14,363 nt of DNA, from the IMG/VR virus record IMGVR_UViG_2681813233_000009. The stretch is one strand, 5' to 3'. A program made the translations under genes and the position numbers. The first letter of the stretch is position 1. Each line of letters starts with the position of its first letter. Below the pieces are notes generated by a model, which saw only the letters and a program-made list of their open reading frames with translations, did not search any database and was not told the origin of the DNA. The stretch is from a virus. Taxonomy: Duplodnaviria > Heunggongvirae > Uroviricota > Caudoviricetes. This document shows positions 1 to 14,363 of the stretch, one piece after another.

Positions 1-20
1 TCTGGATAATGCCAGCGTAG
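1..20. repeat. attL-side copy of att core (direct repeat; may extend left of the window)
   Basis: Identical to 14033-14052; sequences diverge immediately 3' of ...gcgtag (tcgtggcg here versus ggaagtca at the right copy). Confidence 0.7.
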
Positions 21-107
21 TCGTGGCGATTATCCTCATATAAATCAAAAGATTATTGCTCCTTTTCGTCCCGTATTGTTCAGCCGTAACACATTGAGGC
101 TCTCCAA

Positions 108-1463
108 ATGGGACACAAAACCATACGCCACACCATTAAACGTAACGGAATCTATTACGTTCGCTTCCGTCTGCCTGATAACAAGTTTTTCCGTAAGTCT
201 TTAGAGACTGACAGCCACACCCAGGCGCAGTTGCTCATGTCTTTTGCTTCTCCTGTAATCCCTCTGGTTCAACGTGGAACCATTCACCCGGATCAGTTTT
301 GTCAACGTCTTTCTGATTTCAGCAACCGCTTAAAGCAACAGAATGAACACTGGCTGGTTCAACAATTTCTCAGTGATGAACGGCGCAATCTTCAGCCGAT
401 AGTTGTTCAGGAATACCGCGAGGTTGTTGCGCCTTCAGAAGATGAGGAAGAACAAACAGAAGCACAGTCAAAGGATGTGTTAACACTGGCTGGCGCTTGG
501 AATATGTACAAAAAGGAAAAAGCCCAAAACTGGACGAAGGCAATTTCACAGGCCAATGAGCGCTTTATGGAAGTCATGTTCATTGTCGTGGGTGCATCTA
601 AAGATGTAACCACGATTACCAAGCAAGACATTAAACAGGTAATGGAGGTTGTTGAAAACTTGCCTAAGCGTGTTGTACAGCCTTACCGTTCGATGACGGT
701 TCAGCAACTGATCGAGTGTGATGATGTTCCGCCTGAAGATTTGGTTGGCGCTGAGTCTATCCACAAGCATTTGAAGATTTACAAATCGTTGTTTAAAACC
801 TTCCTGACAGACAATAAAGATATTCTGGAGAAGTCTCCGACTGATGGAGTGGTCGCCTCACCATCTAAAGCAAGGTTTGGTGCATATAGCGCAGCAGAAA
901 TGAGAAAGTTTGTGGGGTGGGCGCTCAAGCAGCCTGACGGGTGGCAGAAGTGGATCACTTTGCTGTTGGCGTACACGGGAGCCAGAAGAGGGGAGATCGC
1001 CAAGCTGGAGAAATCACAGATCAAATTTGATGAAGATAGCCAGCGGCACTATCTCCTGATCGCGGAAGGAGGGCAGGGTAAAACCGAGAACGCTACAAGG
1101 CAGGTGGCGATCCATCCCAAACTCATCGAGTGGGGGTTCCTCGAATTTGTAAATCGCCAATGGAAAGAGAAAATCTTCTCGCCTGTGTCGGGTAAGAACA
1201 TGCCGAAGATCGGCAAAGTTTTAGCCGATGTCCGCGATCAGCTTGGTATTCCGTACCTTGATGATTATGGGCAGCGGCGGCTAGTTCACAGTTTCCGGCA
1301 TACCATGATTTCAACCTGTTTAGCAGGCTGGGTTGGTAATCTGGCACACCTGCAACAGGTGGTAGGCCATGAGAAAAGCGGTTCAGGGATCACTAGACGC
1401 TACCTACACACGTTCCCTTTATCAACGATCTGTTATGTGATTGATGGGTTGGGTTGGGAATAG
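108..1463 (+). CDS. int: Tyrosine site-specific integrase (phage integrase family), 451 aa
   Basis: ATG at 108 with GAGG 8 nt upstream; C-terminal catalytic motifs readable in the translation: ...TGARRGEIAKL... (Arg), HSFRHT (His-x-x-Arg), VGHEKSG (His), TRRYLH (Tyr nucleophile); sits next to the att repeat. Confidence 0.9.
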   Translation: MGHKTIRHTIKRNGIYYVRFRLPDNKFFRKSLETDSHTQAQLLMSFASPVIPLVQRGTIHPDQFCQRLSDFSNRLKQQNEHWLVQQFLSDERRNLQPIVVQEYREVVAPSEDEEEQTEAQSKDVLTLAGAWNMYKKEKAQNWTKAISQANERFMEVMFIVVGASKDVTTITKQDIKQVMEVVENLPKRVVQPYRSMTVQQLIECDDVPPEDLVGAESIHKHLKIYKSLFKTFLTDNKDILEKSPTDGVVASPSKARFGAYSAAEMRKFVGWALKQPDGWQKWITLLLAYTGARRGEIAKLEKSQIKFDEDSQRHYLLIAEGGQGKTENATRQVAIHPKLIEWGFLEFVNRQWKEKIFSPVSGKNMPKIGKVLADVRDQLGIPYLDDYGQRRLVHSFRHTMISTCLAGWVGNLAHLQQVVGHEKSGSGITRRYLHTFPLSTICYVIDGLGWE

Positions 1464-1555: not shown

Positions 1556-2578
1556 CTATTCGGAAGTGACTTGGCTTTGCTTTTTTATCGTTCTGGTTTT
1601 CAACATTTCAATCTGGCCAGCTTCGGTTAATGACCAGAAAGTATTCATGCTGCCATTGGTGGTTTTTAAATATTCAATTTTTATCAAACCATATGCCCTA
1701 AATTGCACTCCTATCGTTTTAAGGTCTTGAGAAGATACTTTTGCTGATGTGCCTCCCTTGCCTGCGACCTTTTGAGCGCTTTTGGCAATTGTGTATGATA
1801 CGCTTGATTCAGTATAATATTGAGTGAGATAGGGGGAGATTGAGTGAAAAATATCCTTCCATTTCATTTTCACGGACCAGTGTTTTGTTCCACCGGGATC
1901 ATACCCGATTCGAGGAAAGGTGGACTCACATCTAAATTCAAAATCATCATCAAAGTCAGCCAGATCCAGATCAAGTGTTTGACTAAGATTACTTGTGGCC
2001 TTGGCTAGTTCACTTTTTAACCATTCATTCTCTTTTTGTAAATCAACCATAGCCCGTAAATCAGTTTCAGAAGACGTTAGGTTGGCTCTTACCCATCCGA
2101 TTGCTGGATAAGTTTTCATCGTTTTACTCATACTTAAAGCAACCAACCCGGGTAAATCTTTGGCTGTTGCCCATGTTTTCCTGAGACGATTGGTTGAGGC
2201 CTTCTCTATAAATGCAGCTAGCTTCTCTCTGAGTTCAGAATCTTTTTCAGATTTGGCTAAAGGTAGATTTTCCGGATTCTCATGTACCAAAACAACGACG
2301 CGTAAACCTTTTGAAACTGCGTAATCGAATTCCTTTTCCGTGTAACTTAAACCATCTTCCGCGACAGAGCCATAACGACCACCAATGATCAGCAGATAAT
2401 AATCACAGTCATCAATTACTTTTTTTATGAACTCCCATTGGCCTTCATCGATTGCTGGGAACAACTCCATGCCTGCTGGAATGCAATCCATTTCCATCAG
2501 AGTTTGTATGACGTGTTTTCGTTCTTCTTCTAAATCCGTAAAAGTTGAACTTACGAAAACCTGGTAACGTTTATCCAT
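1556..2578 (-). CDS. Cargo protein, 340 aa, with N-terminal DUF4062-like motif ([16 protein letters not shown]); candidate defense or abortive-infection protein
   Basis: ATG at 2576-2578 (minus) with AAGGGA RBS; uninterrupted 340-codon ORF; visibly more AT-rich than neighbouring genes; N-terminal FVSSTF-DL-EER motif matches my recollection of the DUF4062 family; central coiled-coil-like segment ([28 protein letters not shown]). Domain assignment not verified by HMM. Confidence 0.8.
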
Positions 2579-2584
2579 TTTTAT

Positions 2585-2616
2585 CCCTTAAAAGAGGAAG
2601 GGGCATTAGCCCCTTC
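2585..2616 (-). terminator. Putative intrinsic terminator or attenuator between the small Cys-rich ORF and the cargo gene
   Basis: 8-bp GC-rich stem gaaggggc/gccccttc (2597-2604 with 2609-2616), loop atta; on the minus-strand RNA it is followed by CCUCUUUU, which overlaps the RBS of the downstream cargo gene. Confidence 0.4.
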
Positions 2617-2624
2617 ATTCAACA

Positions 2625-2891
2625 TTAACCAGCGTGACGGTAGGATTCACGCACACCATCACGATAACCATCAGCGAACGCTGCTTGAGGACTTTTGTGG
2701 CGAACGGTTCCCGCCTGGCTATCAGGTAAGGCGGCTAAGTCTACCCAAACCTGACCCGTGCGAGCCAAGCCAGCGCGGTAACCCTGATCGTAAGCGCAGC
2801 CGCAACATTTATGGCGACCTTCACCACCTTGATCGTGAGGTAAGCTGATGAAAAGAGTATTGTAACGGTGTGACTGTTTACAAATGGTCAT
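2625..2891 (-). CDS. Small Cys-rich hypothetical protein, 88 aa (MTICKQSHRYNTLFISLPHDQGGEGRHKCCGCAYDQGY...)
   Basis: Internal ATG at 2889-2891 (minus) preceded by a strong AAGGAG RBS at 6-nt spacing; the longer track ORF (to 3014) has no RBS. GC-richer than the adjacent cargo gene. No family recognised. Confidence 0.5.
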   Translation of the reverse strand: MTICKQSHRYNTLFISLPHDQGGEGRHKCCGCAYDQGYRAGLARTGQVWVDLAALPDSQAGTVRHKSPQAAFADGYRDGVRESYRHAG

Positions 2892-3571
2892 GCAATGCTC
2901 CTTATGAGCGTTCATTTTAAGGTTTACATGATCCTCTTTGCCTGGCACAATCAAGCCGTCAGAAATGAAGGCAAGGCTAAGATTCATACGAGTTTGGCGA
3001 CTCCTATTGGTCATGCTTTGTAAGCCGGGTTCGTGAAAATGAATCCGGTTTTTTTATGCCTAAAAATCAGGCATGGCACTACATGTGGGGGTGGTCAATC
3101 AATGGTGGCCCCACATAGACGATATTCTAGTGATGATTCTTTTCTGCACAAGGGTTGATTTTGACGTTAAATTGAGGTTGTGAAAGGGTAAAAATGCAAA
3201 ACCCTGCACAGCATAAGGCTTGGAAGACATGTCAATGATTAAGAAAAAAAAATCAAAATTTGATCGAGTGCTGATTTCTTCAACGGGAGGTCAGAATTGC
3301 GCGACATGATGTCGCGTAATCTTTATAAGAATAATGAATGGCATTAGTCGTTTTTGATGGTCTCTTGTAACATATAGTTAACATATAGATGTTCGTGAAG
3401 GGAGAAAGGCGCGAAAGGTAAATGTTATCTGGATAGTCTACCAATGCCTGTACCAGTACGAAAAGAGCGCTAATCATACCGAACTTAATCTCATAAAGGT
3501 TTTCACGAGAGCGAAGGACGTTAACGCTAGATTGCGAAACGAAACATTTCATTCTCTTCAATCTTTGGGTA

Positions 3572-3903: not shown

Positions 3904-4923
3904 TTACTTCAGCTTGACGTTCAGCATGTAGTTCGGGCGCAGGTTCAGAGGAATGAAGCTCGCCTCTTGGTGAACGGTCACCATGCCGTAACGGTCAGTC
4001 ATTACTTTTTGGTAGTAAGGGCTGATCACACCTTTAGCGGAGATATCCTGATTACGTGAAGCCGGGCCGCGTACCAGTTTGAACGGGTTACGATCCGCTG
4101 CACTGAACTTTGGAACGAACAGGCCGGAACCTGCCGCGATTTCGTAGCGGTCATCGTCCGCCAGAATGAAAGTAATGTTGCCAATGCTGAAGGAGTCATA
4201 ACCCGCAGTGTTAACCGGGATCAGAGCGCCTTTTGCAGCCTCCGCCACTTTGTTGGTGATCAGGCTGGTTACTTCTGGGTGGCTCGCCAGAACGTCATAC
4301 AGATCCGGGGAGCAGAAGCAATAGAAGCGGTCCAGATAGGAGCGGCTCGCGCCGTACTCTTTAACCAACATGCGGCGAATCTTCGCAAGCTGTGCATAGA
4401 CGTTAGCGCCTGCTGAACCGTCGAGGTCGAAACTCAGCGGAGCAGTACCAAACACAGCGTTAAAATCTACGTCGCCGTCATCCGTTTTAGCCGCTTTCGC
4501 TTCCTGCTTGAACAGGGCGCGGGCCAGTGTGCTTTCAACTGTTTCCAGATGATAGTTACGCATACGGATAGCTTTATCAGCAATAACAGATGTGATCGCC
4601 TGAGCCTGATCCGGGTTAGCCGGGCTTACCAGGCCTTGCCAGTCAGCGGTTTTTACATCCGCCTCAGTGGCATAGTGTGGGATCTCCTGGTTACGCAGGA
4701 TGGTTTTATCCATCATGATCGCGTTAACTTCGGTGCCATAGCGGGCAACCTGCTCCAGTTCACTAACCTGAGTTTCCACAATATCCACAATCTGGGCGTT
4801 TGGAGTGGTTGAGTTAACATCGGAGAAGATACCCAGATCAGAGATCAGGTAATTACCTGCTGGTTGATCTTTGATCGCCGCTACAGTGTCCAGCTTTTCA
4901 AACTGTTTAAAATCAATAGCCAT
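3904..4923 (-). CDS. Putative phage major capsid protein, 339 aa (family not verified)
   Basis: ATG at 4921-4923 (minus), AGGAA RBS; starts 12 bp after the stop of the upstream small gene (small-gene/capsid-gene arrangement as in lambda D-E); A/D/S/T-rich composition typical of virion proteins. Capsid assignment is by context and gestalt, not by alignment. Confidence 0.6.
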   Translation of the reverse strand: MAIDFKQFEKLDTVAAIKDQPAGNYLISDLGIFSDVNSTTPNAQIVDIVETQVSELEQVARYGTEVNAIMMDKTILRNQEIPHYATEADVKTADWQGLVSPANPDQAQAITSVIADKAIRMRNYHLETVESTLARALFKQEAKAAKTDDGDVDFNAVFGTAPLSFDLDGSAGANVYAQLAKIRRMLVKEYGASRSYLDRFYCFCSPDLYDVLASHPEVTSLITNKVAEAAKGALIPVNTAGYDSFSIGNITFILADDDRYEIAAGSGLFVPKFSAADRNPFKLVRGPASRNQDISAKGVISPYYQKVMTDRYGMVTVHQEASFIPLNLRPNYMLNVKLK

Positions 4924-4935
4924 TGTGTGATTTCC

Positions 4936-5307
4936 TTATGCTTTGAAGTAATCGGCGTTGATAGCCAGGCGAATATCACCGGAGGCTGTCAGCGCTTCCA
5001 GTGCGGCTTTTTTGCTCGCGGCGTCTTTAGCACGTAGGGCAAAATCGGTAATCACAACATGGCGATCCACGATAACCAGCGTTTTAGTCTTGCCATCGGC
5101 GGACATATTGGAAAGGTTAATGATCGGCTTGCCAGCTTCAGCGGCGGCGGAGTCGAACAGGGCAAAAGTTTTGCTGTCCAGAATATCGCCACAGTAGACG
5201 TCAGCCGGGAGGCTTGGGGCGGTTACTTCGGTGCGGTCAAACAGGCTGGAGGCGTAGTTGACGATTACGTCACCTTGCGTTACCGGGTAGCGCTCGGAAG
5301 TTTTCAT
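4936..5307 (-). CDS. Putative head decoration or capsid-associated protein, 123 aa
   Basis: ATG at 5305-5307 (minus) with AAGGAAAA RBS; the track ORF extends to 5451 but lacks an RBS there; tightly coupled (12 bp) to the downstream capsid gene. Confidence 0.5.
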   Translation of the reverse strand: MKTSERYPVTQGDVIVNYASSLFDRTEVTAPSLPADVYCGDILDSKTFALFDSAAAEAGKPIINLSNMSADGKTKTLVIVDRHVVITDFALRAKDAASKKAALEALTASGDIRLAINADYFKA

Positions 5308-5437
5308 AAAGGTTTTCCTTATGGAGGGTTTTAGACGTGGAGAGAGTCCACAGGATGATCCGGCGTTGCACCGAATATAAGGACCGCCACAGAGGACAAT
5401 CCGAATTGTTGGAAGATGGGAGGCCGTGGATTGAATA

Positions 5438-5467
5438 GAAGAGGGCGGCATCCGCGCCGCCCTTTCT
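5438..5467 (-). terminator. GC hairpin with flanking U-rich tracts upstream of the capsid operon (possible leader terminator)
   Basis: 7-bp stem gggcggc/gccgccc (5443-5449 with 5456-5462), loop atccgc; tttct follows on plus, and tcttctatt follows on the minus RNA; lies about 135 bp upstream of the decoration-gene start. Confidence 0.4.
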
Positions 5468-6551
5468 AATCTGGCTCTCTCTCACCCTCGCGGGTGGGGA
5501 AGGATATTTATCCTTTTGTGTGGATACTTGCCGCCCCTGGTGGCGTCACGTCGAATAGCACCAACCTTTTGGCAAATACCCACAAAAAAGAACCCGGCTG
5601 GAGGAACCGGGGTGGACAATGTAACTTACTGTATGATCACTTGTTTTCCTGTGTAGCCTCAGAGCCTTACATGATTTGCTTTCATGGTTCAGCAAAGAAG
5701 CCACAGAGGAAAACGGGCACCCTGAACGCGCCCGGAAACCATCGACGCAAATCAATAGTTTATCGTTGAGACCAGGTAACCAGCCCGGCCCAACTGTGAC
5801 CCCGTGGAGGGTCGATACAATTGAAGGAGATTCGCTTGTATTCTGAAGAGCCGCAGTTAGCGACGCTTTAGAATAGGGCCTGTGGCGCAAGCACTATGAT
5901 TAGAGGCGTTTTGAATCGTAGGAGTGAAACAATCGGCGGAACTTGAGGAGAGGACCGCACACAAAGCATTCTGGCAAGTGGAGTTGAAAGAACACTTTGG
6001 GTGAGGGCCGGGGCGGGGGAGAAGCCGCCCGGCTCACTCAGTACAGATCCTAATTGCACACGTTGCGACTCTGTACAGGTGGGGGGCGTGACAAGCTGCA
6101 AAACGGTAATTTCGATATCCTCGCCACACCCCACACCATGTATATTAGTTTAACACGAATGATTATCATTTGCAATAAAAATTAATTGCATTGTGTTGAG
6201 TCTTATGATATTGGCGGCCACACACGTGACGGATCAGATCTGCATTAATTTTTATTAGTGAGTGGTCTGACTCAGGGAGGGCTATGTGTCCCAAAAGACA
6301 CACGAAGTAATAATAGATATATAAGACCTCGCTACGCTCGCCCTCCGGGTCCGTCTTATTGATCTTATATAATAACTTCATTCAATAACTAATTGTTTTC
6401 ACAATTAATCATTTCATTCGTTATTATATGATCTTAAAACCTTCTCGCCCTTTGGGCTTACCAGGTTTTAGGCCGGGGCCTATTTCCCCACAATGTAGAG
6501 TCTCGCCTGTGTGGCTCATCTCCCGGGGGGCATTTTGAAACAAGGGTGTAC

Positions 6552-6612
6552 TGACAAAATGTCACAACGTGTTATGACAGATTGGCACAACGTGTTATGA
6601 CAAAATGTCACA
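6552..6612. promoter_or_regulatory. Cluster of dyad-symmetric repeats (operator- or iteron-like)
   Basis: 17-mer cacaacgtgttatgaca occurs twice (6563-6579 and 6586-6602), 6 bp apart; 15-mer tgacaaaatgtcaca occurs twice (6552-6566 and 6598-6612); each unit is itself a near-palindrome (TGACA-aaa-TGTCA; TGTCAcAACG/tGTTaTGACA). Confidence 0.5.
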
Positions 6613-9495: not shown

Positions 9496-9870
9496 ATGCA
9501 CCCCTTTGAACTACTGAAACGCCAGCTTGACGAAATGGCGAAATCCCGCCAGGTAGAGCAGGCCCAAGAGGAAGCCGCCGCCCGTGAACTCCGCAAGGCA
9601 CAGGCCGATCTCTCCCTGGACGAGGCTATTGCTCTGTACGGTACACAGTTGGAAGCCTCCACCGATGCAGCAGACAGCGCCCAGAAGGGCCGCGCCATTA
9701 AGAGCCGGGGAATTGCTCTGTGTCACAAGGATCAGGGATTCAGCGCCAACGGTCGCCCTGTGTCTCTCCTGACCAAATCAGCAGATCTGCCAGCAGGTCA
9801 CCGCCGGGTAATCATCAACAAAGCAGCAGGGCGCACCCTGAAGGCTATCAATCTGGAAGGGGCTGAATAA
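9496..9870 (+). CDS. Hypothetical protein, 124 aa, translationally coupled to the tape-measure-like gene
   Basis: ATG at 9496 with AAGGA RBS; its stop overlaps the next ATG (TAATG at 9868-9872). Confidence 0.6.
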   Translation: MHPFELLKRQLDEMAKSRQVEQAQEEAAARELRKAQADLSLDEAIALYGTQLEASTDAADSAQKGRAIKSRGIALCHKDQGFSANGRPVSLLTKSADLPAGHRRVIINKAAGRTLKAINLEGAE

Positions 9871-11990
9871 TGAGCGGTAACGTCATCATCACGAAGACCG
9901 TAAACAGAACTACGTTCACCACGGACGGGGCCAGCTATAAGAAGACGGTTGACCGTATCAAACAGGTGGGGAAAGAGTGGGATAAAGTCTCCTCTAAAAT
10001 GAAGCCTCTACGGATGAAATTTGAGGAAAACGCCTACACCAAGATCCGCCGGAAACAGCAGGACGCCACCGCAAAAGCAGCACTGGCAGAAGCCAAAGCC
10101 AAAGCCGCAGCGGAAGCCAAAGCGGCAAAAGCCCAACTAGCAGCGGAGCGTAAACTCCAGACAATCCGCGCTAAAGCTATTCGCTTTAATACCGCAGCGG
10201 CTAACGCCAACGTTACCCCGGCCCAACGTGCTGGACACCTCCAGGAGTTTGGACAGCTTACGCGCCAGTATCACGCCGGGTCTATGGCATTACAGGAATA
10301 TAACGCCCGTGTGTCACGCCTTCAGCAAACCATGCGCCAACAAGGCCGGGTAGGCATGAGGGGAGCCACAATTCCCGTAACCGCCAAAGTAAACAAACTG
10401 GATACCTCCATGATCGAGGGTGCAGGCGGGGCGATCACAATTGCCGCCACTGTGGCACTCTCCGGCAAGATCATGACTACCGGACAGGATTTTGAATCCG
10501 CTATGTCTGGTCTTACAGCGATCACCGGTTCCACAGAAAAAGCCGGGAAAGAGTTTGATTATCTTCGTGAACAGTCCAACCGTCTGGGGCTGGACCTTCT
10601 GAAAACTTCAAAAGACTATACGCAGTTTGCCGCCGCTGTTGGGGACAAACTCCCTAAAGACCAGATGCGATCCATCTTTGAGGGTGCTTCAGAGTGGGGC
10701 CTTGTTACTGGTGCATCCGCAGATGAGCAATCACGTGCGTTAAAGGCCCTTAACCAGATGATGTCTAAGGGTACGGTCATGAGTGAAGAACTTAAAGGCC
10801 AGTTGTCCGAGGCTCTCCCCGGCTCTGTGGGTCTGTTCGTTAAAGCCCTTAACGACATGAAAGGCGTTACCAACCTGACCGAGCAAGATTTGTTTAAGCT
10901 GATGGAAGACGGGAAGCTGTTCTCTAAGGACATCCTCCCACATGTGGCTAAACAGATGAAGGAAGCGGCCCGGCAGGGTGGCGCACTTGATAAGGCGATG
11001 AAGTCCAACCGGGCATCATGGCAGCGCCTCAATACCAGTATGCAGAACGCTATGAATGTGTTTTTCACTTCTGGCTTCGGTAACTCCCTTACCAACGCTT
11101 TCGACTCAATCAGCGCCGCTATTGACGGATCTGGTGGAGCCTTTGAGATGTTCGGGCATATCGCCGGGAAAATCGTTGAAGGTGCCACAGATGCGTTTAC
11201 AGAGTTGCATGACACTGTGATCCTGACCTTCCGCATTATTGAGTATTACGCCGCCAAAATGGGGATCAGTGGGGAGCAGCTCAAAGCCTGGGGAGAAATG
11301 GCAGCATATGCCGCCGGGGTGGCTCTGTTCGCTGGCTCTGTTTACAAGTTGGGCGGGGCTTTCAAGTGGGTCCTCACCATGCTGAACCCTCTTACCAAGT
11401 TGTTGGGAGTCATGAAGGGGATCGCCGCTATTGGTGGCATTGAGGCCGCTTCTGAAGCTCTGAGCGACGGTAAGCCAGGTAAAGACGGCCAGCCGGGCAA
11501 ACCGGGAACCCCATCAAAGAACACCAAGCCGATCGGCGCGGGCCGTGGCGTTAACTTTGGCCTCCCGGCTATTATCGCCGCTGTATCTCTGAATGACCGC
11601 CTTGATCAGATTCAGGCAGACCCGGAAGCGTTTAAGCGAAAGGTACAGGAGAATAATGATCGGCCTACGCTGTGGACTGACATCATGGAAGCATTCTCCG
11701 GCAGTTGGTACGAAAAGCAGCAGAACGCAAACCAGCAGGCAGCACAGACCGCAGCACTCGATCAGACTGTTCGTGTTGCTGTTCCAACCTTCATCCCTCC
11801 AACCACAGCGACGGTTACAGGTGGCTACGGTAATCCACTGATGACGCCGCCAGCGTGGCTAAACCAGCCGCTAAACGTGAGCGTTAATGTGAAGGTGCAA
11901 GATGGACAGGTGAAAAACCTTGTGCAATCTGAGATTGAACGTAATGAACAGGCGGCATTTAACATGCTGATGCAGGGCGGGCCAAACTAA
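9870..11990 (+). CDS. Phage tail tape-measure-like protein, 706 aa
   Basis: N-terminal Ala/Lys-rich coiled-coil (AKAALAEAKAKAAAEAKAAKAQLAAERKL); central segment LKGQLSEALPGSVGLFVKALNDMKGVTNLTEQDLFKLMEDGKLFSKDILPHVAKQMKEAAR resembles the conserved tape-measure motif as I recall it; hydrophobic Gly/Ala-rich segments; collagen-like GKPGKDGQPGKPGTP; followed by a terminator. Confidence 0.8.
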   Translation: MSGNVIITKTVNRTTFTTDGASYKKTVDRIKQVGKEWDKVSSKMKPLRMKFEENAYTKIRRKQQDATAKAALAEAKAKAAAEAKAAKAQLAAERKLQTIRAKAIRFNTAAANANVTPAQRAGHLQEFGQLTRQYHAGSMALQEYNARVSRLQQTMRQQGRVGMRGATIPVTAKVNKLDTSMIEGAGGAITIAATVALSGKIMTTGQDFESAMSGLTAITGSTEKAGKEFDYLREQSNRLGLDLLKTSKDYTQFAAAVGDKLPKDQMRSIFEGASEWGLVTGASADEQSRALKALNQMMSKGTVMSEELKGQLSEALPGSVGLFVKALNDMKGVTNLTEQDLFKLMEDGKLFSKDILPHVAKQMKEAARQGGALDKAMKSNRASWQRLNTSMQNAMNVFFTSGFGNSLTNAFDSISAAIDGSGGAFEMFGHIAGKIVEGATDAFTELHDTVILTFRIIEYYAAKMGISGEQLKAWGEMAAYAAGVALFAGSVYKLGGAFKWVLTMLNPLTKLLGVMKGIAAIGGIEAASEALSDGKPGKDGQPGKPGTPSKNTKPIGAGRGVNFGLPAIIAAVSLNDRLDQIQADPEAFKRKVQENNDRPTLWTDIMEAFSGSWYEKQQNANQQAAQTAALDQTVRVAVPTFIPPTTATVTGGYGNPLMTPPAWLNQPLNVSVNVKVQDGQVKNLVQSEIERNEQAAFNMLMQGGPN

Positions 11991-12060: not shown

Positions 12061-12627
12061 TCATAACAGATCCGCTATTGAATATTTATCACTAAAATCA
12101 TCTACTTTGCGTTGTGTGGCCCCAATGTAATGAAGCGTACTGGATAACGATTTGTGCCCTAATGCTTTACTAATTACAGCTATATCCTCCCCATTGTCAT
12201 AACCAATCGTTGGTTTACTCTTCCTCATGCTGTGGGTCGAAAGATTCAGCCCCAGCTTTTCCCCGGCGTAGCTAATTTCCTCATGCAATTTGGAGCGGCT
12301 CACAGGTTTTCCCTTGCTCCTGTGGCTGTCCAACTGTAAGAGGTACACATTATCAGGGTTAGCCTCTCTCCGGGCCGCTATGATGCGTTTAGCGGTATCG
12401 GTAAGCCTCACCCGGACAGATTCACCCGTTTTCTGTTGGGACAGGACAAGGTGATCGCCTTTGATGTCGGCATAACGGATAGAGCGCAGATCCGACACCC
12501 TCAGCATTAATTCATAACCCAATAACCAGGCGTCACGGTACAGCGTCAGCCCCTTGCCCTGTTTGAGTAGCTCAACTGCTACCGCTTTCACTTCCTGAAC
12601 TGATTTACAGCCCTCTACGAAATTCAT
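12061..12627 (-). CDS. Small tyrosine recombinase, catalytic domain only (FimB/FimE-sized), 188 aa
   Basis: ATG at 12625-12627 (minus) with GGAGAG RBS; the track ORF begins at an upstream TTG without an RBS; motifs LRVSDLRSIRYADI (Arg), HSMRKS (His-x-x-Arg), LGHKSLSSTLHY (His and Tyr). Confidence 0.8.
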   Translation of the reverse strand: MNFVEGCKSVQEVKAVAVELLKQGKGLTLYRDAWLLGYELMLRVSDLRSIRYADIKGDHLVLSQQKTGESVRVRLTDTAKRIIAARREANPDNVYLLQLDSHRSKGKPVSRSKLHEEISYAGEKLGLNLSTHSMRKSKPTIGYDNGEDIAVISKALGHKSLSSTLHYIGATQRKVDDFSDKYSIADLL

Positions 12628-13020
12628 TCTGTACTCTCCAGAACCTAACTGTGATAAATTTTTGATCAAAAACAAGCACTTGTAAACGACAAAAATTATT
12701 AATTTTAAGTTGTGTCTTTTTAGTGAATTAAATCGGGTTTAATCGCGTTTAATGGCAGAGTAATGACCCGGCAGGGGAGGTAATGGGCTGTTTATGTGGG
12801 TAAAAGATGGTTGCTTAATGTACTATTACCACAAGACGGGTAAGGTGATTTGACTCCCTCAGTTCCTTTAAGCTACTGTATTTATGGGAAATTAATTATT
12901 GTTTCTTTATGGTGTTGCCTGGCAAATTTTCAGTTTACCCTCAAGAAAAATCCCCATCTTTTTTATTCTCCACATGAGAATAAATTTTGTTTGCAAATAT
13001 CACTCATTCTCAACTCCAGT

Positions 13021-13199: not shown

Positions 13200-13588
13200 T
13201 AAAAGGACAGAATGGTATTGTGTTGTTATTAAGTTGTTGAGATTAAAGGGATGTCTTAGGGGGGACTGTAGTGGAGGAAGGTTGGGCAGGGTTTAATCAG
13301 AATGCAGGTCACTCGGCAGGGAGTGCCCTTAGATATTTGGCGAAAATACACGTGACCCCCCAGGGCCTCAGGTTGAAGGGCCTAGCAACAATATCCAAAC
13401 TCCCGGATATTTTCCCACCCAACTGGAAGGAATCCGCCCCTATTTTCTGTTCGTGTATAAGTTAGGCTGAGGGAGGCTTGCCAATGTACACCCCCTGGAT
13501 TTGGTGATCTGTTAAGTTATTGATTTTGATCGATTTTAGATCAATCATCCGTTGCCGGGATTACCCCCACCCAGACGGATGGCACACA

Positions 13589-13771
13589 ATGAATAACGAT
13601 AAAGCAAACCACCCTAAACACTTCCAATACTTGGGCCGCATGGTCACTGTTTACCCTACATACATCATTATTGACGGTATCAAGATTAGCCGTTCCCGTC
13701 TTTCCTTTGCATTCCAATTGGAATTGGCAAAAGCACTTCGACTGCATGAAGAAAGCGTATGCAGAAAATAG
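13589..13771 (+). CDS. Hypothetical small protein, 60 aa (alternative TTG start at 13520 gives 83 aa)
   Basis: ATG at 13589 with a weak GGA-containing RBS; followed by a strong terminator; no family recognised. Confidence 0.35.
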   Translation: MNNDKANHPKHFQYLGRMVTVYPTYIIIDGIKISRSRLSFAFQLELAKALRLHEESVCRK

Positions 13772-13807
13772 ATTTCATTTAAATCTTCACGACTGAATAA
13801 TTTACTT

Positions 13808-13832
13808 AAGCCGCCTTATGGGCGGTTTTTTT
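13808..13832 (+). terminator. Rho-independent terminator
   Basis: Stem ccgcc/ggcgg (13811-13815 with 13821-13825), loop ttatg, followed by a 7-T run (13826-13832). Confidence 0.6.
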
Positions 13833-13981
13833 GTGCCTGCCATTTATCTGTGGGTCACAACGTGAGACACAAACTGGGACACAGAGGATTTTTTAGGGTT
13901 GAGTCTTTGGCTTCCCGCTGGCATGATCCAGAACAGGGATTAACGGGACGTTAATCGCAAGCTTTTGATTTTGTTTTATTT

Positions 13982-14106
13982 GACTCGGGGTGCCCTTCTG
14001 CGTGAAGGCTGAGAAATACCCGTATCACCTGATCTGGATAATGCCAGCGTAGGGAAGTCACGGACCACCAGGTCATTGCTTCTTCACGTTATGGCAGGAG
14101 CAAACT
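13982..14106 (+). promoter_or_regulatory. TPP (THI-box) riboswitch of thiM: aptamer plus expression platform
   Basis: Sequence gactcggggtgcccttctgcgtgaaggctgagaaatacccgtatcacctgatctggataatgccagcgtagggaag matches the E. coli thiM TPP aptamer as I recall it (including the conserved CUGAGA element); it runs into the thiM RBS (aggag at 14096-14100). Confidence 0.9.
14033..14052. repeat. attR-side copy of att core, lying inside the TPP aptamer
   Basis: Identical to positions 1-20. Confidence 0.7.
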
Positions 14107-14363
14107 ATGCAAGTCGACCTGCTGAGTTCAGCGCAATCTGCGCACGCGTTACACCTTTTTCACCAACATTCCCCTCTTGTGCACTGCATGACCAATGATG
14201 TGGTGCAAACCTTTACCGCCAATACCTTGCTGGCGCTCGGTGCATCGCCAGCGATGGTTATCGAAACCGAAGAGGCCAGTCAGTTTGCGGCTATCGCCAG
14301 TGCCTTGTTGATTAACGTTGGCACACTGACGCAGCCACGCGCTCAGGCGATGCGTGCTGCCGT
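14107..14363 (+). CDS. thiM: Hydroxyethylthiazole kinase ThiM, N-terminal part (runs off the window)
   Basis: ATG at 14107 after aggag RBS; translation [85 protein letters not shown] matches E. coli ThiM as I recall it. Confidence 0.9.

Follow-up and report, generated by a model that had tools for sequence, protein, structure and literature searches.

A phage-related island integrated in the thiM riboswitch restores a complete chimeric TPP aptamer and probably supplies the thiMD promoter

Introduction

Elements that integrate into tRNA or tmRNA genes and bring a replacement for the displaced segment include P4, P22, HP1, and many genomic islands, and rules for the sublocations that tRNA-targeting elements use were reportedly worked out by K. 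P. Williams in 2002. Phage 21 and e14 are said to integrate into icd with a substitute 3' end. Integration into another kind of structured RNA gene is described in the abstract on phage phiEf11, whose attB, with a core of 27 nt, lies within the 4.5S RNA gene ffs (PMC12540744). Here we analyse a window, meaning the whole 14,363-nt stretch of IMG/VR virus record IMGVR_UViG_2681813233_000009, which holds a phage-related island of about 14 kb with a tyrosine integrase gene (int) adjacent to one junction and, at the other, the thiamine pyrophosphate (TPP) riboswitch in the leader of thiM. The island is integrated within the riboswitch, and we consider it probable that thiMD are run from an island-borne promoter through a chimeric, complete TPP riboswitch.

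Results

The island joins the host inside the thiM aptamer

The window has one complete TPP aptamer in the thiM leader, at 13976-14072, scoring 74.8 bits against an Rfam curated threshold of 54.3 for RF00059, and the thiM start codon is the ATG at 14108. A megablast search with 13600-14363 as query gave matches in 5,425 of 5,426 complete E. coli genomes, and in all but 28 of those matched the alignment began only at query base 383, which is window position 13982, and then ran at 96-99.7% identity (99.7% for K-12-type genomes). At the joint, K-12-type DNA reads ...caaccaaacGACTCGGGG and the window ...ttttatttGACTCGGGG; in the K-12 derivative DH1 (locus L002, 1490-1509; loci are cited by such numbers throughout) the sequence is ...cgcaaccaaacGACTCGGGG, in the window ...gttttatttGACTCGGGG. 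An earlier reading of this DNA from its letters alone (the original prediction) had given a K-12 leader sequence and put a junction of identity near 13982. Both were exact, as judged by the DH1 sequence and the megablast edge, and the full comparison with reference thiM leaders that it proposed has them matching only from 13982 rightward, bar the 28 genomes. The parts of the locus that this comparison defines are as follows.

13976-14072, plus strand: complete chimeric thiM TPP aptamer, covering RF00059 model positions 1-105
14053-14107, plus strand: host-derived 3' strand of P1 and expression platform with the ribosome-binding site, within the DNA that is 99.7% identical to K-12-type genomes
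14108-14363, plus strand: 5' part of thiM (hydroxyethylthiazole kinase), so annotated in all matching genomes, running past the window end
1-20, plus strand: last 20 bp of the left (attL) copy of a 71-bp block, an exact repeat of 14033-14052; full copies in relatives are preceded by the native promoter

The direct repeat of 1-20 and 14033-14052, on which the original prediction had drawn, is real, although it is merely the tail of a 71-bp block (13982-14052) present at both the left and the right (attR) junction. Only 20 bp are visible because the window begins inside the attL copy. Complete copies of both are found in E. coli strain SCU-316 (L003; NZ_CP054371.1), which matches the window without a difference (100%) over 13780-13985, and in other related genomes: there attL leads from native rcnR-thiM intergenic DNA through GACTCGGGG...GCGTAG (71 bp) and the island left arm into int, and attR leads from the island right arm through the same 71 bp and GGAAGTCACGG... 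into thiM. K-12-type genomes have the unoccupied site. The right arm of the window recurs in 36 E. coli genomes, adjoining thiM every time, and the same architecture in more than 15 further genera of Enterobacterales; thus, the feature is not a product of chance.

Strands are most likely exchanged in the P4-P5 hairpin DNA

We next compared attL with attR in seven E. coli genomes that have both junctions and this arm type (L001, L003, L004, L006, L007, L008, and L012). Their attL equals host sequence (...CTTCTGCGTGAAGG...CGTATCACC...), and variants specific to attR, among them CTTCTTTGTG, CTTCTTAAATG, CTTCTTCGTTG, TATTACC, and TACCACC, are confined to block positions 17-21 and 44-45, corresponding to window 13998-14002 and 14025-14026. 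Over the final 26 bp of the block attL and attR are identical in every examined E. coli genome having both junctions. Because attL is host-type and the attR variants all lie left of these 26 bp, the integrase most likely exchanges strands within 14027-14052. The comparison thereby supports assigning the first 45 nt of the attR aptamer, and everything upstream, to the island, in line with the original prediction, in which the aptamer's 5' half and all other DNA left of the crossover entered with the element.

14027-14052, plus strand: att core and probable strand-exchange region (ACCTGATCTGGATAATGCCAGCGTAG), quasi-palindromic P4-P5 hairpin DNA identical in attL and attR
13982-14026, plus strand: element-borne 5' part of the aptamer, recognised by attR-only variants in relatives and equal here to the E. 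coli sequence

The core palindrome reads CCTGATCTGG-ATAATG-CCAGCGTAGG and may be likened to the anticodon or T-arm DNA used by tRNA-targeting integrases; cleavage is predicted on either side of its ATAATG (14039-14044). A separate case is the attL copy of L011 (9840-9909), which combines a host-type P3 loop with the element-type T at block position 45, its attR having been destroyed by IS3; this base hints that exchange or gene conversion now and then extends leftward beyond the 26-bp core, or else at a host polymorphism.

Integration displaces the native thiM promoter

The AUG of E. coli thiM occupies +151 to +153, as in the mutant U152A (Bastet et al., PMC5499598), and in a Cappable-seq comparison the MG1655 start site is tabulated at a distance of 150 nt from the start codon (PMC10469882). 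The native +1 is L002 1476, 7 nt past the TACCAT of TTTACA-17-TACCAT and 25 nt upstream of the junction: it lies upstream because the start is 150 nt before the ATG, just after this promoter. After integration the native promoter sits at attL, about 14 kb from thiM and facing int, which bears out the predicted displacement.

The chimeric aptamer is intact

The island-borne 13982-14026 contains the 5' strand of P1, P2, P3, the CUGAGA junction, the 3' strand of P2, and most of J2-4, and both ligand-binding motifs, the CUGAGA junction and ACCUGAUCUGGAUAAUGCCAGCG, are there. In the Rfam alignment P1 pairs UGACU with AGUCA across the joint between island and host. The chimeric aptamer outscores that of native K-12 (74.8 vs 71.2 bits) because P1 has one extra U-A pair, with T13981 in place of C. 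Hybrid aptamers at seven other loci, from six named genera and an unclassified Enterobacteriaceae metagenome-assembled genome (MAG), score 73.5-77.7 bits. All 32 distinct element-borne 5' halves keep CUGAGA, and the P2 strands are kept apart from three singletons, each of which differs by a single base in proximal P3 or the 3' strand of P2. Most of the variation is seen in J2-4, in the junction that follows CUGAGA, and in distal P3, where both partners of a pair usually change together. TPP sensing is probably retained after integration, and we infer that the chimeric riboswitch binds TPP.

The right arm carries a candidate promoter among putative recombination sites

Upstream of the aptamer lie about 150 bp of non-coding DNA and a terminator-like hairpin, in which the following features can be recognised.

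13808-13835, plus strand: intrinsic-terminator-like hairpin and T run (in the terminator scan, a stem of 9 bp, 5 of them GC, followed by TTTTTGT)
13851-13883, plus strand: three direct repeats TG(G/A)G(T/A)CACA with 12-bp spacing, read from the sequence, with similar triplets in other arms; probable arm-type sites of the integrase
13899-13927, plus strand: candidate element-borne thiMD promoter, the top sigma-70-like site of the arm, conserved in position
13909-13935, minus strand: inverted degenerate copy of the aptamer P4-P5 core plus GGGAA (host-side), found by a minus-strand regular-expression match and comparison with the core; probably an accessory integrase site
13938-13956, plus strand: hairpin GAUUAACG-GGA-CGUUAAUC, predicted 5' end of the element-initiated thiM leader, with covariation
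13958-13970, minus strand: putative integration host factor (IHF) consensus match read from the sequence, AATCAAAAGCTTG = WATCAANNNNTTR

The candidate promoter consists of a -35 element TTGAGT (13899-13904), a 17-bp spacer, a TG at 13919-13920, and a -10 element CATGAT (13922-13927). Transcripts would start at about 13933-13935, which gives a 5' untranslated region of about 174 nt. When the 200 nt ahead of P1 were scanned with a weight matrix, with the best site per 206 nt as background, it scored 9.7 bits, at the 94th percentile of the background; the native thiM promoter scored 10.2 bits, and the runner-up in the arm of the window 3.7 bits. The best site was at the same place in 13/13 arms of this type scanned. 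We then assembled 91 distinct arms of this type (alignment A1) from an integrase genome scan and a metagenome pattern scan. In nearly all of them a -35-like hexamer stands 17 bp from a -10-like hexamer at a constant distance to P1. Moreover, in a sub-family where a 3-bp insertion turns the -10 into TACTAT, the -35 (TTTACA) has moved 3 bp closer, so that the spacing stays 17 and 9/12 consensus positions match.

The inverted core copy, whose reverse complement is CCCTGTTCTGGATCATGCCAGCGGGAA and whose block is nearly invariant in A1, encloses the -10-like hexamer. We had taken the conservation of CATGAT/CATTAT as evidence for a promoter and dropped it on finding that the block is an inverted core copy; the position of the -35 and the spacing count instead. 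The second arm family described below has an inverted copy of TGCCAGCgTAGGGgAA only. RNA of 13909-13935, if transcribed, would be antisense to aptamer P4-P5.

The three repeats and the IHF match, whose specified positions are conserved in A1 and whose four N positions vary, would complete a typical attP arm. On a rival reading the right arm is pure recombination machinery, made of arm-type sites, pseudo-core, and IHF site; CATTAT/CATGAT would merely reflect the ATAATG of the aptamer loop in reverse complement, the promoter match would be a by-product, and the true start would lie elsewhere in the arm. Several observations speak for this or weigh against an active promoter at 13899-13927. Because the -10 is part of the inverted att-core copy, its conservation is not independent evidence for a promoter. 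The equivalent site in many relatives reaches only about 7.3 bits, an ordinary score at the 71st percentile of the background, and arm L110 breaks the 17-bp spacing. A strict consensus scan (at least 9/12 matches) of 13400-14363 returned no promoter, the candidate having 8/12 plus the TG. To these should be added that the hairpin covariation described next reflects few independent events in related sequences, that experimental start sites come from the second arm family (EDL933) only, and that, because the attR block of the window equals host sequence throughout its 71 bp, the crossover cannot be placed from the window alone, in which only the 13982 boundary is visible.

We nevertheless regard the by-product explanation as unlikely: the next-best site in the 200 nt is no higher than 3.7 bits, the pseudo-core does not include the -35-like hexamer, which in the sub-family has shifted by 3 bp along with the -10, and an RNA-type hairpin follows 3-5 nt past the predicted start, as in the native leader. 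This hairpin (13938-13956) folds independently of the aptamer and is fully paired in 26/35 haplotypes. Across the 91 arms its pair 68-77 is C-G in 62 and U-A in 25 sequences, and one-sided changes in five pairs yield G.U on the thiM-sense strand (A.C on the opposite strand). An analogous 5'-terminal hairpin is present in the native leader and, by inspection, in the Enterobacter native leader too. The pattern is suggestive of transcription toward thiM that starts between the terminator and 13936, in keeping with an active promoter at 13899-13927 and a transcript start at about 13934. We also considered the hairpin with its U-rich tract (13938-13981) as a terminator or attenuator and judged this unlikely, the U run starting 6 nt past a weak A/U-rich stem.

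The upstream hairpin at 13808-13835 would end element transcription ahead of the right arm and insulate it. Of the related arms examined, two (L005 and L007) have a terminator-like hairpin of their own at this place, and three others (L008, L009, and EDL933) have a divergent upstream gene. These arrangements bear on read-through from island genes as the source of thiMD transcripts, the arm itself being promoterless. A co-oriented open reading frame (ORF; 13520-13771) does finish at 13771, and terminators are seldom fully efficient. However, a good terminator-like hairpin lies between this ORF and the arm, and read-through is impossible in L008, L009, and EDL933 because the nearest upstream gene is divergent. 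Read-through RNA would also include the inverted core copy, complementary to P4-P5 over about 20/22 nt, and would be expected to compete with aptamer folding. We therefore hold read-through to be very improbable and retain the candidate promoter of the arm as the source of thiMD transcripts.

Three loci show arms of this type in other settings. In L019 (9728-9850) and L016 (9750-9845), window-like arms with promoter-like site, pseudo-core, and hairpin (in L016 a different 10-bp stem with two G.U pairs) stand right after host-like genes and before attL; they could be either remnants of older islands or a sign that the arm type derives from the native thiM leader of some genus. In L052 (IMGVR_UViG_2529293239_000005, about 6230-6410, minus strand), a window-type arm and 5' half-aptamer run up to ...CCCGTAT and then pass into unrelated, T-rich DNA that lacks an att core; this joint could stem from an assembly artefact, a deletion, or a rearranged element.

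In O157:H7 thiM is transcribed from island-derived DNA

A second family of islands has a related integrase, other cargo (GmrSD and others), the same core, and a different right arm. This arm, which in the examined E. coli examples follows the host sequence as far as caaccaaac, is present in 566 of the 5,426 complete E. coli genomes. In O157:H7 a 2.3-kb remnant of this family fills rcnR-thiM (L158 3910-6190 in strain 3384; L160 7268-9546 in EDL933). It is without integrase, attL, and native promoter (the last, for EDL933, as seen on the identical L158), has a single core copy, and the next gene upstream is divergent. Table S5 of the Cappable-seq study (PMC10469882) lists thiM starts for EDL933 at 137, 148, and 201 nt upstream of the ATG. 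Each of these listed starts, when placed on the EDL933 sequence, maps to island-derived DNA, the 148-nt start being 6 nt past the TAAGCT of a conserved TTGCAT-17-TAAGCT. Since the native promoter is gone and the listed starts lie in island-derived DNA, an island-derived promoter drives thiM in that lineage. By analogy, this supports the principle of an island-supplied thiM promoter; as proof it does not extend to the arm of the window.

EDL933 likewise bears on the possibility that integration silences or strongly lowers thiMD as a polar insertion, the half-aptamer being kept only to give the integrase sequence identity. The expression evidence does come from the second arm family and not from this arm type, and thiM is a dispensable salvage gene. 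Against silencing, EDL933 transcribes thiM from island-derived DNA, and thiD, which a polar insertion would also affect, is required for de novo thiamine synthesis. The integrase, moreover, needs just the 26-bp core, because attL and attR differ left of it; yet the 45 element-borne nt retain every TPP-binding motif in the 32 variants, with P3 changes mainly paired, and thiM-proximal aptamers score above 73 bits, whereas distal copies have decayed. Silencing is thus hardly credible, and continued thiMD expression through the restored riboswitch is the reading that we keep.

The left arm and the integrase

At the other junction, the left arm leads directly into the integrase gene.

21-107, plus strand: left (P') arm and int leader, read from the sequence and conserved in 32 distinct attL arms
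108-1463, plus strand: int, tyrosine integrase of 451 aa (PF00589, PHROG 1 integrase)

The left arm contains an inverted half-site CTGGCGATTATCC (about 23-35), facing the GGATAATGCCAG of the core, and a putative IHF site, AATCAAAAGATTA (43-55), recognised by consensus only. The int gene is co-oriented with the truncated attL aptamer, its ATG being 87 nt past the block. In 19/20 relatives of the integrase, from Enterobacter, Citrobacter, Klebsiella, Pantoea, Rahnella, Buttiauxella, Lelliottia, Kosakonia, and others, at 58-96% identity, a TPP core lies about 90 nt upstream of the integrase, these 19 being 64-96% identical; the exception is the MAG locus L017, with the inverted core copy alone. 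Relatives at about 30% identity, from marine gammaproteobacteria, had no TPP core nearby, and the target is therefore specific to the enterobacterial clade.

In L003 (1441-1660), L004, and L006-L009, attL carries the native thiM promoter, the leader, and an aptamer without the P1 3' strand, all reading into int, so that int transcription from the native thiM promoter is plausible. We also considered a functional aptamer before int, with P1 restored at attL, and rejected it on finding no variant that restores P4 and P1 together. Indeed, aptamer copies at attL or internal to arrays score 53.3-62.4 bits or fall under threshold, some being visibly degenerate, and TPP control of int is unlikely because the attL aptamers reach 53-62 bits only and never have both P4 and P1 restored.

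Cargo, relatives, and spread of the island

The island encodes a DUF4062 protein, major capsid and decoration-like proteins, a replication-initiator-like helix-turn-helix protein, and a 706-aa tape-measure-like protein; the capsid, decoration, and tape-measure genes lie within 3904-5451 and 9870-11990. No terminase, portal, or primase was recognised among its proteins, and a comparison of the whole island and of its integrase with a phage collection gave no useful match. The island does not readily fit the satellite families described as phage-inducible chromosomal islands (PICI), capsid-forming PICI, or P4-like, and we file it under none of them. A second, short tyrosine recombinase of 204 aa (12061-12675, minus strand) is kept even in the strongly decayed islands L001, L004, and L012. 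In the intergenic stretch 6546-6612 a unit of 21 nt (GTGTACTGACAAAATGTCACA and variants) occurs three times, spaced at 23 bp; the copies look like island iterons or operators.

The slot after int is variable. In the window (1556-3014) it holds the DUF4062 gene and a gene for a 129-aa protein, in L003 and L006 an 'ATP-dependent nuclease', and in L009 GmrSD, and it looks like a slot for defence genes; PADLOC, run on four island ORFs, reported no known defence protein.

Sites are found both occupied and empty, and E. coli and Enterobacter cloacae share identical arms. Because the arm of E. cloacae M-7 is identical to that of the window over the stretch compared, the element probably moves between genera. 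Tandem arrays, in which the right arm of an island or island remnant is joined via the att block to the next integrase arm, are seen at L012 3780-3850, L028 9840-9915, and L048 9920-9990, and the internal aptamer copies in such arrays are often degenerate.

Discussion

The sequence of events that we propose is the following. A tyrosine-integrase island would enter an attachment site inside the thiM aptamer by exchanging strands in the P4-P5 hairpin DNA, its attP carrying a 45-nt copy of the aptamer 5' part left of the core. Native promoter, leader, and 5' half-aptamer are then left at attL, pointing into int, and thiM is preceded at attR by a terminator, arm-type repeats, a sigma-70-like promoter, a 5' hairpin, an IHF-like site, and an aptamer made of the island half and the host 3' half. 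Transcription of thiMD from the island promoter would keep thiamine regulation and avoid a polar knock-out of thiD. The rewiring of thiMD with TPP sensing kept, as the original prediction had it, finds indirect support in the conserved promoter-like site, the sense-strand hairpin, the upstream terminator, and the intact chimeric aptamer; the promoter activity of the arm is a predicted one.

Strain differences in the thiM leader and promoter thus have a cause that is not visible in annotation. K-12 promoter and leader data cannot be transferred to island-bearing strains, because the arms replace these sequences (566 + 36 genomes, with the native promoter gone in O157:H7). The locus is also a natural chimeric riboswitch, to which a mobile element has contributed the 5' half and the host the 3' half together with the expression platform, and the at least 32 element-borne variants of the 5' half make up a test set for the aptamer variation that the thiM switch tolerates. 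The 26-bp core could serve integrase-based engineering as a conserved landing site in Enterobacterales.

A wider proposal is that islands widespread in Enterobacterales use the aptamer hairpin as their att site and carry a cassette of promoter, hairpin, and half-aptamer, by which the regulation of thiMD and that of the island may be coupled. We consider this proposal, taken as a whole, doubtful. If true, thiMD would run from island-derived promoters in about 1/10 of E. coli, including O157:H7; integrase binding at the inverted site that overlaps the -10 could modulate thiMD; and the native promoter and truncated aptamer reading into int could feed thiamine signals into integrase expression and island stability.

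The chromosomal position has been listed before. In a survey of E. coli defence islands, a supplementary table gives 'rcnR-thiM' as the location of a type IV restriction island (PMC10121019). The position is the one described here, and the listed island belongs to the second family, with GmrSD cargo like that of L009; the entry consists of a flanking-gene label with mobile-element type 'None' and no numbered hotspot, and the word 'riboswitch' does not occur in the main text as available. Searches of the literature on thiM or the riboswitch with integrase, attB, or islands returned, within the text accessible to them, no account of this att site beyond that table label. What appears new is a variant, namely target-restoring integration into a riboswitch with a promoter supplied; the restoration principle itself is known.

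Compared with the native E. coli thiM riboswitch (PMC5499598), the window is the same from 13982, and both its expression platform and the Rho-dependent region near the start of thiM come from the host. By contrast, the native promoter and the 25 nt that open its leader have given way to about 48 nt of island leader, and P1 gains a U-A pair. The island resembles phiEf11 in integrating into a structured non-coding RNA other than tRNA; the phiEf11 target, however, is a stand-alone RNA gene and no riboswitch, and its abstract is without promoter substitution. Like phage 21 and e14, it carries a working replacement for the part of its target that is displaced, marked by element-specific polymorphisms, although these phages substitute protein-coding 3' ends and involve neither promoter replacement nor RNA structure.

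The likeness is broadest with the elements of tRNA and tmRNA genes: an integrase beside one junction, a core on the DNA of a symmetric RNA stem-loop, empty sites in most strains, tandem arrays, and an identity block that is far longer than the crossover region and restores the interrupted RNA. Unlike theirs, the target of the thiM island is a cis-regulatory aptamer in an mRNA leader, and the part replaced is the 5' part, for which reason the element must supply a promoter and leader instead of a 3' end and terminator. The rule that islands target structured RNA genes and repair them would thus extend to a cis-acting riboswitch, where the repair must include the promoter.

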